Of a DNA stretch of 19,751 nucleotides, positions 17,859-19,494 are shown in pieces. Each line of letters starts with the position of its first letter. Position 1 is the first letter of the stretch. Under the pieces are notes generated by a model. It was not told the origin of the DNA and made no database searches. It worked only from the letters and a program-made list of their open reading frames with translations. The translations under genes were made by a program, and so were the position numbers. Location: the IMG/VR virus record IMGVR_UViG_2734482585_000002. One strand, given 5' to 3'. Source of the DNA: a virus (taxonomy: Duplodnaviria > Heunggongvirae > Uroviricota > Caudoviricetes).

Positions 17859-17884
<26 letters not shown>

Positions 17885-18404
17885 TCAGCAACCCCGGTAT
17901 CAGTTCATCCAGCGCGGCTGCTTTGTTCATGGCTTTGATGATATCCCGTTTCAGGAAATCAACATGTCGGTTTTCCAGTTCCGGAAAACGCCGCTGCACC
18001 GACAGGGGGATCCCGTCGAGAATACTGGCAATTTCACCTGCGATCCGCGACAGCACGAAAGTACAGAATGCGGTTTCCACCACTTCAGCGGAGTCTCTGG
18101 CATTTTTCAGCTCCTGTGCGTCGGCCTGCGCACGCGTAAGTCGATGGCGTTCGTACTCAATAGTCCCTGGCTGGAGATCTGTCTCGCTGGCCTGCCGCAG
18201 TTCTTCAACTTCCCGGCGCAGCTTTTCGTTCTCAATTTCAGCATCCCTTTCGGCATACCATCTTATAACGGCGGCAGAGTCATAAAGCACCTCATTACCC
18301 TTGCCACCGCCTCGCAGAACGGGCATTCCCTGTTCCTGCCAGTTCTGAATGGTACGGATACTCGCACCGAAAATGTCAGCCAGCTGCTTTTTGTTGACTT
18401 CCAT
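17859..18404 (-). CDS. Nu1: Terminase small subunit Nu1
   Basis: 181 aa ORF MEVNKKQLADIFGASIRTIQNWQEQGMPVLRGGGKGNEVLYDSAAV...; ATG at 18402-18404. Confidence 0.96.
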
Positions 18405-18581: not shown

Positions 18582-18593
18582 CGCCTTCCGCCC
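18582..18593 (-). promoter_or_regulatory. cosN cohesive-end 12-mer, variant: GGGCGGAAGGCG on the minus strand
   Basis: Flanking sequence on both sides (ggttacg / cgcgggttttcgc on the minus strand) matches the lambda cos junction as I recall it; the 12-mer sits between them. Confidence 0.8.
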
Positions 18594-18629
18594 CGTAACC
18601 TGTCGGATCGCCGGAAAGGACCCGCAAAA

Positions 18630-18644
18630 TGATAATAATTATCA
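18630..18644. promoter_or_regulatory. Perfect 7-1-7 palindrome TGATAAT-A-ATTATCA (Fur-box-like), candidate operator
   Basis: Read directly from the sequence; identical to the 7-1-7 Fur-box consensus TGATAATnATTATCA. Confidence 0.5.
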
Positions 18645-18792
18645 TCTACATGTCACAACGTGCATCTACGCCATCAAACCACGTCAAATAATCAATTATG
18701 ACGCAGGTATCGTATTAATTGATCTGCATCAACTTAACGTAAAAACAACTTCAGACAATACAAATCAGCGACACTGAATACAGGGCAACCTC

Positions 18793-19026: not shown

Positions 19027-19083
19027 AGCAATTTAGATAATCGTGCAGACTACGCCCCCTCATATCACATGGAAGGTACTACA

Positions 19084-19494
19084 ATGGCTCAGGTTGCCAT
19101 TTTTAAACAAATATTCGATAAAGTGCGAAATAATTTAAACTATCACTGGTTTTATTCTGAACTAAAACGTCACAATGTCTCACATTACATTTACTATTTA
19201 GCCACAGAGAATATTCATCTTGTTCTTGAAAACGATAATACGGTTTTAATAAAAGGACAGGGTAAGGTTGTAAATGTAAGATTTTCAAAAAATAAATGCC
19301 TTATAGAAGCCACCTTAAAAGGATTCAAATCAGGAGAGTTATCATTTTACGAATACAGGAAAAATCTTGCTACAGCAGGGGTTTTCAGATGGATTACAAA
19401 TATCCACGAAAACAAAAGGTATTACTATACCTTTGATAATTCATTACTCTTTACTGAGAACATACAGAACACTACACAAATATTTCCGCACTAA
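19084..19494 (+). CDS. YbcV-like protein (DUF1398 family), function unknown, 136 aa
   Basis: [58 protein letters not shown]...; second ATG chosen because GGAAGG lies 7 nt upstream; roughly 75% identical to the lambda/DLP12 homolog as recalled. Confidence 0.8.

Follow-up and report, generated by a model that had tools for sequence, protein, structure and literature searches.

Why a perfect match to the Fur-binding motif should lie a few base pairs from the packaging site of a lambda-like phage, and which process host iron would reach through it, are the questions raised by this locus. The window, i.e., the whole stretch of 19,751 nt that was analysed, is a lambda-like late region in an orientation opposite to that of the lambda map, with the large terminase gene found to the left of Nu1. 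The site and its neighbourhood consist of the following features:

17859-18404, minus strand: Nu1, terminase small subunit (Pfam Phage_Nu1, 2e-101)
18582-18593, no strand: cosN cohesive-end 12-mer CGCCTTCCGCCC, in place of AGGTCGCCGCCC in lambda, Qin and DLP12
18617-18623, minus strand: cosQ, the packaging termination signal, GGGTCCT, from the alignment with lambda and 434 and from the records of phages 434 and 21, in which cosQ is annotated
18625-18649, both strands: overlapping matches to the 19-bp Fur consensus, a typical Fur site cluster, from consensus scoring
18630-18644, no strand: Fur-box core, a perfect 7-1-7 palindrome TGATAATAATTATCA, from the motif match; the same as in DLP12 nohB/nohD and phage 434
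18793-19026, plus strand: DUF3950 (YlcI/YnfO-like) gene (Pfam, 2e-20)
19069-19494, plus strand: DUF1398 (YbcV/YdfO-like) gene (Pfam, 3e-43)

The lambda right end aligns from 18594, and cosQ, which reads AGGACCC here (the reverse complement of GGGTCCT), has coordinates that agree with the annotation of the phage 434 record. The palindrome is found 36 bp from cosN, 6 bp from cosQ and 149 bp from the DUF3950 ATG (18793). The first-pass annotation of this DNA, which had placed the palindrome about 36 bp from cosN and about 150 bp before the first ATG, was thus correct on both distances, and the YlcI-like and YbcV-like neighbours that it had named were recognized by Pfam as DUF3950 and DUF1398. The cohesive-end 12-mer CGCCTTCCGCCC differs from AGGTCGCCGCCC at six positions, five of them in the half that Feiss and colleagues report as unconstrained, and this variant recurs in an Escherichia sp. 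contig (L181).

The motif scan bore out the exact 7-1-7 palindrome that had been noticed at 18630-18644. The sequence TGATAATAATTATCA matches the motif TGATAATnATTATCA at every position and is its sole match within the window with up to two mismatches allowed; the number of 7-1-7 matches per window expected by shuffling was 0.03, with one contained in 6 of 200 shuffles. The perfect palindrome grows to 17 bp (ATGATAATAATTATCAT). Against the 19-bp Fur consensus GATAATGATAATCATTATC, the score of 14/19 reported earlier is right for the centred register (18628-18646), and a register moved by 3 does better, with 16/19 at 18625-18643 on the plus strand. Additionally, the minus strand holds two 15/19 matches, at 18625-18643 and 18631-18649, which overlap at an offset of 6 bp, while the rest of the window scores no higher than 13/19. 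The hexamers across the box (CAAAAT GATAAT AATTAT) make it a Fur box by the definition that calls for at least three NATWAT hexamers or overlapping sites. Altogether, the palindrome is supported as a genuine Fur-type site.

A hairpin or terminator role for the palindrome was also considered and was rejected as unlikely. The DNA hairpin has a predicted energy of -3.3 kcal/mol (z -1.65) and the RNA fold on the late-transcript strand a z of -0.97, neither of significant stability, and terminator prediction called none at the site.

The first-pass annotation had known of no described Fur input at this position in lambdoid phages. The implied novelty did not survive the comparison with Escherichia coli K-12, where the site has already been published as nohA/nohB, with a gel shift in 2007 and a reference to the Fur titration assay paper of 1994. 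The intergenic region aligns with the DLP12 nohD-ylcI and Qin nohA-ynfO regions, and with the right ends of lambda and 434. Between 18594 and 18792 the window and DLP12 differ at only two bases (18624 and 18783), and the cohesive 12-mer immediately to the left differs as well. The palindrome arms are invariant in the window, DLP12, Qin, lambda and 434; an A stands at the centre in the window, DLP12 and 434, against a G in Qin and lambda, and the latter two also differ from the window in the nearby flanks (the lambda palindrome is TGATAATGATTATCA). The palindrome centres are located at 580602 (DLP12) and 1636599 (Qin) in NC_000913.3, and the distance from the centre to the Nu1 start, 233 bp in the window, is 232 bp to the annotated nohD start in DLP12.

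In the survey of Chen et al. 2007 (PMC2189734), the nohB Fur cluster at 579824 reached 25.3 bits, the third-strongest in the genome, with four overlapping sites over 28 bp (their Table 4), and the nohA cluster at 1634624, position -233, reached 22.3 bits. The same authors chose nohA as a predicted Fur-controlled promoter and observed that an oligonucleotide of the nohA allele was gel-shifted by 150 nM purified Fur (PMC2189734). For nohB they refer to the paper on the Fur titration assay, and for nohA additionally to a selection of Fur-binding fragments in vivo; the works that they cite include Stojiljkovic et al. 1994 and Vassinova & Kozyrev 2000 (PMC2189734). The position of -133 that their Table 4 gives for nohB (PMC2189734), against the 232 bp measured here, probably goes back to another annotated start or to a misprint.

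The sites of Chen et al. were equated with the palindrome by their coordinates and by their distance to the FNR site of Grainger et al., and not by oligonucleotide sequence. The coordinates of the two published clusters are offset from those in NC_000913.3 by 778 bp and 1975 bp. Both offsets agree within 2 bp with the IS1 and IS5 insertions by which the older version of the record, used for the published clusters, differs from the newer one. The reference point for the second comparison is a further element of the window:

18719-18732, no strand: perfect FNR box TTGATCTGCATCAA, from the motif match; centred 67.5 nt before the DUF3950 ATG

Grainger et al. 2007 detected FNR at nohA/nohB by ChIP-chip and EMSA at sites with TTGATCTGCATCAA, located at 579735.5 and 1634713.5. 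From these sites to the Fur coordinates of Chen et al. the distance is 88.5-89.5 bp, and from the FNR box to the palindrome centre it is 88.5 bp in the window and in both K-12 copies. The alignment, the coordinates, the matching FNR distance and the match to position -233 therefore identify the element with the published nohA/nohB Fur site, and the Fur box at this position, as judged from sequence and map position, is an already known element.

Occupancy by Fur is documented for a homologous allele in strain CFT073. In iron-replete CFT073, the Fur pan-regulon study of Gao et al. 2023 (PMC10164565) recorded the Fur ChIP-exo peak P53 (1424699-1424711), and we found that the CFT073 palindrome CGAGAATAATTATCA, at 1424694-1424708 beside a phage-21-type cos, overlaps this peak. 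As described there, P53 is flanked on one side by a transcription unit that encodes the small and large terminase subunits, a head-tail joining protein, the portal and the next gene, and on the other by a divergent unit of two small genes (PMC10164565). Among the genes listed there, deletion of fur raised the divergent side by log2 +2.95 and +2.33 (5- to 8-fold) and the terminase side by log2 +1.34 (TerL), +1.57 (portal) and +2.13 (PMC10164565). Together, the published gel shift and ChIP-exo on homologous alleles make Fur binding to the element appear well supported.

The K-12 data sets gave other results. For MG1655 and W3110, the listed ChIP-exo peaks of Fur include none at the DLP12 or the Qin copy, and a nohA/B promoter::lacZ fusion had low activity (Grainger et al. 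2007). In published RNA-seq of K-12 fur deletions, nohA and nohD were not derepressed, with decreases observed in W3110, and ynfO/ydfO and ylcI/ybcV were unchanged in the MG1655 deletion. The W3110 deletion, at very low read counts, showed log2 changes of -5.1 for ynfO, -2.0 for ydfO (p 2e-5), -3.7 for ybcV (p 8e-5) and -5.3 for ybcW; ylcI likewise falls, also at low counts, and so do distant DLP12 genes such as appY. The sign of the fur-deletion effect on the right-end genes is therefore up in CFT073, unchanged in MG1655 and down in W3110. The published fur-deletion effects conflict between strains, and the rise of late genes in CFT073 could represent general prophage induction in an iron-overloaded, DNA-damaged mutant instead of local derepression.

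Information about what the element belongs to was obtained from its conservation. A scan of viral contigs anchored solely on the cosQ region returned 120 loci, 116 of them usable, whose right flanks fall into 21 unrelated clusters. In 16 of the 21 right-flank clusters, a Fur-box-like palindrome with 0-3 mismatches of 14 is found 4-8 nt beyond cosQ, where such a match within 25 offsets would be expected by chance in roughly 1 per 100 to 1,000 sequences (a rough estimate). Amongst named phages, lambda, 434, 21, phi80, N15 and HK225 carry a palindrome at this spacing:

lambda: TGATAATGATTATCA
434 and phi80: TGATAATAATTATCA
21: CGAGAATAATTATCA, with two mismatches
N15: CGATAATAGTTATCG
HK225: CGATAATAATTATCA

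The conservation of the palindrome across lambdoid right ends, which the first-pass annotation had wanted checked, was thus found in 16 of 21 flank contexts as well as in the named phages. Across 21 lineage representatives with unrelated right flanks, the conserved stretch in window coordinates is:

18627-18650, no strand: conserved block AAA[T/C]GATAAT[A/G][A/G]TTATCA, followed by a weaker TTnCA

Relative to the palindrome centre, conservation in these representatives extends from -10 to +7, is weaker up to +13 and drops to background past +14. The TTnCA at 18646-18650, 9-13 nt to the right of the centre, is weakly kept across unrelated flanks; it may mark where the Fur footprint ends, or it may be a short element of its own. 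The homology of the window with Stx1 phages and with PhiR47_2 stops a few bases past the palindrome. Additionally, many of the lineages with the palindrome have their next rightward genes on the late-operon strand (spanins, N15 gp59 and the phi80 homologue), with no divergent accessory gene. As the palindrome is kept with unrelated right flanks, even where divergent genes are missing, it belongs to the cos/terminase module and not to the accessory cassette. Closer relatives were less informative: across 46 unique ones, the palindrome arms vary at 0.009 and the right flank at 0.020, and this whole region is so nearly invariant that it discriminates poorly. A cosQ-anchored scan of genome contigs was dominated by chance matches and lambda-vector contamination; it gave only 13 true cos matches, mostly lambda itself, and added no taxonomic breadth.

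The palindrome is absent from five of the 21 clusters, namely those of L021 and L076 and three with a lambda-type Nu1 (L014, L031 and L058). A lambda-type cosN and cosQ with no Fur-like palindrome was observed in L021 (cosQ at 2560-2578) and nine similar viral loci, and also in L076 and L207. The neighbours of cos in L021 are AlpA, a gpD-like protein and a truncated gpE-like capsid fragment, with no Nu1, and L076 is also without a Nu1-like gene. From this gene content, L021 appears to be a satellite or PICI packaged by machinery borrowed from a helper phage. The existence of cos sites without the palindrome indicates that the element is common but apparently dispensable, and it argues against a requirement for packaging.

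No mention of the palindrome was found in the open literature on cos and packaging, although the original papers defining cosQ may comment on it. In the open cos literature, packaging termination is defined by cosQ and cosN alone, and a search of the open literature turned up no paper that connects Fur with Nu1 or with the terminase.

What would a Fur site in the cos/terminase module control? The promoter-like sites near the box all read leftward, toward cos and Nu1, and the best of those returned by promoter prediction coincides with the box:

18629-18656, minus strand: sigma-70-like promoter toward cos/Nu1 (GTGACA, 16-nt spacer, TATCAT; 10/12), with the -10 and the spacer under the palindrome

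There is, in our judgement, about an even chance that the palindrome acts as a high-affinity Fur operator placed over a promoter near cos, from which transcription would run toward the terminase genes. With iron in sufficient supply, dimers of Fur-Fe2+ would occupy about 25 bp, among them the -10-like hexamers formed by the box itself, and bound Fur would silence cos-proximal transcription that is independent of the phage antiterminator Q. In the window, the candidate target would be the leftward promoter across cos into the terminase/head operon, which we infer to fire, and to be under Fur control, in the lysogen. Transcription toward divergent genes could also be silenced in lineages that have them. 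A -10 within the box is the classical layout for repression by Fur, and it agrees with the choice of nohA by Chen et al. (PMC2189734) and with the CFT073 data. Of 17 lineages with the palindrome, only about 8 have a comparable leftward promoter, and lambda itself falls short of the prediction criteria. A promoter-operator role therefore cannot explain conservation everywhere, and a conserved leftward promoter as the general cause of conservation was rejected, given its presence in about half of the lineages and its absence from lambda. Additionally, if the role were purely transcriptional, the close linkage to cosQ would not be expected.

The direction opposite to that of the terminase genes needs to be considered as well. 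The box could be the iron-responsive operator of the DUF3950/DUF1398 genes, at which Fur would repress, or would activate from upstream, e.g., by countering H-NS silencing. The box is indeed found in the intergenic region upstream of these genes, 149 bp from the ATG; the divergent genes near P53 rise 5- to 8-fold in the CFT073 fur deletion, among the genes listed in that study, and the falls of ynfO, ydfO, ybcV and ybcW in W3110 would fit Fur as an upstream activator. However, the palindrome is kept with unrelated flanks and beside late-strand genes such as spanins and N15 gp59, and the effect of deleting fur changes sign between CFT073 and W3110 and is not seen in MG1655, with very low K-12 counts and with appY falling too. 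The accessory module also has an FNR box of its own, at a fixed 67 nt from the ATG in 59 of the 69 viral loci with a DUF3950 gene. This FNR box is a separate element of the accessory-gene module, and it would belong to a predicted class II FNR promoter with a -10 near GACAAT (18754-18759) and a start at about 18766. No rightward promoter between the Fur box and the DUF3950 ATG was found by promoter prediction. Control of the accessory genes by iron, as proposed in the first-pass annotation, did not hold up in the sense of a conserved target, since the palindrome stays with cosQ and the terminase, and the genes have their own FNR box and no predicted rightward promoter. As to fur-dependent transcripts, the proposal finds no derepression in K-12 to match and is favoured by the rise of the divergent genes in CFT073. 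We regard an accessory-gene operator as unlikely, though worth weighing.

The linkage to cosQ that a cos-proximal operator would leave unaccounted for is the starting point of a packaging role, in which a dimer of Fur or of another protein, 6 bp outside cosQ, would serve as an architectural factor or as a speed bump for terminase and would aid or gate termination, comparable to IHF at cosB. The linkage, at 4-8 nt, is seen in six named phages and 16 of 21 contexts. These phages differ in cosB and terminase specificity, so that the shared partner would have to be cosQ/cosN or a host factor. The polarity of lambda packaging is established, with the motor reaching cosQ from the palindrome side, and the element is thus located on the side from which cosQ is approached. 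However, the spacing to cosQ varies by 4 bp, which means that helical phasing is not kept. The satellite- or PICI-like L021 has cosQ and cosN and no palindrome, as do the three lambda-Nu1 lineages without it (L014, L031 and L058), and the open cos literature names only cosQ and cosN for termination. On this evidence, a part for the palindrome in packaging is decidedly unlikely.

A third possibility is that the element is a Fur decoy, by which hundreds of phage genomes in lytic replication, each with a top-ranked Fur site, would titrate Fur, derepress host iron uptake and favour phage production. The Fur titration assay works in this manner, in that a Fur-controlled reporter is relieved of repression when a site is cloned in multicopy. 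It was to the paper on this assay that Chen et al. referenced the nohB site (PMC2189734). A decoy needs no local promoter, which fits the lineages that have none; it leaves the fixed position beside cosQ unexplained, however. Fur is abundant in E. coli, so one site per genome may titrate little, and a decoy is very unlikely to be what the palindrome is kept for.

It is also highly improbable that the palindrome serves mainly a phage protein (e.g., the large terminase subunit), or some other purpose at the DNA level, and binds Fur incidentally. Its conservation with the packaging module across phages and the lack of Fur occupancy in K-12 ChIP-exo would be consistent with this reading. On the other hand, conservation falls on the positions of the Fur 7-1-7 motif and on the flanking A-tract hexamer, binding of Fur is published both in vitro and by ChIP-exo, and the palindrome forms no hairpin of significant stability. 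To our knowledge, no phage protein binds such a site.

That the palindrome is itself an FNR site has next to no probability, as its half-sites are wrongly spaced (TGAT-N7-ATCA, not TTGAT-N4-ATCAA), the separate perfect FNR box assigned by Grainger et al. and bound in vitro is 88.5 bp away and Myers et al. 2013 class the locus as Fur-repressed, even though their FNR ChIP-seq summit at 1634625 (NC_000913.2, Qin; about 18637 in the window) falls exactly on the palindrome. The position of this summit on the palindrome and not on the FNR box 89 bp off may reflect the resolution of peak calling or a cross-reaction of the antibody with Fur-bound DNA, and the same table of Myers et al. 2013 includes several other classical Fur sites.

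With a Fur operator over a cos-proximal promoter as the preferred reading, the Fur box as such is ordinary, since the identical sequence has long been catalogued as a strong K-12 Fur site (nohB/nohA). The new point is possibly the context, in that a top-ranked K-12 Fur site is a conserved neighbour of cosQ across the lambda family, including lambda itself. A broader proposition, which we hold to be improbable and put forward tentatively, is that the Fur box has gone unrecognised as a conserved accessory element just outside cosQ in the lambda family, through which host iron would act on packaging by way of terminase expression, termination or the sequestration of Fur. If Fur does have a role at cos, iron status would be tied to the production and packaging of a model phage, in a manner testable by existing lambda genetics.

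Several known systems can be compared with this element. As with the palindrome in the window, the CFT073 site P53 lies beside cosQ, between the terminase operon and divergent small genes (Gao et al. 2023, PMC10164565); it differs in having the CGAGAATAATTATCA allele and another right flank, which lacks DUF3950 and DUF1398. The sites at nohB/nohD in DLP12 and nohA in Qin share the same position, 232-233 bp from the start of the Nu1 homologue and 6 bp from cosQ. However, DLP12 and Qin are decayed cryptic prophages, whereas the window holds what appears to be a complete lambda-like late region, with Nu1, A and the genes downstream of them, and the nohA/nohB literature assigns the site to the noh genes, a link to cosQ or phage lambda not having been found there. 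Another host Fur operator on a lambdoid prophage is reportedly the box in the stx1 promoter carried by Stx1-converting phages (Calderwood & Mekalanos 1987), which is said to place a phage-borne gene under iron control. The stx1 box overlaps the toxin promoter, in the late region upstream of the lysis genes, while the cos box is without a defined promoter or cargo gene. Finally, we know of no packaging role for Fur, and natural cos sites exist without the Fur palindrome, whereas IHF has a demonstrated accessory role in packaging initiation at the sites I1 and I2 of lambda cosB, which are likewise sites for a host protein embedded in the packaging region and conserved together with it.
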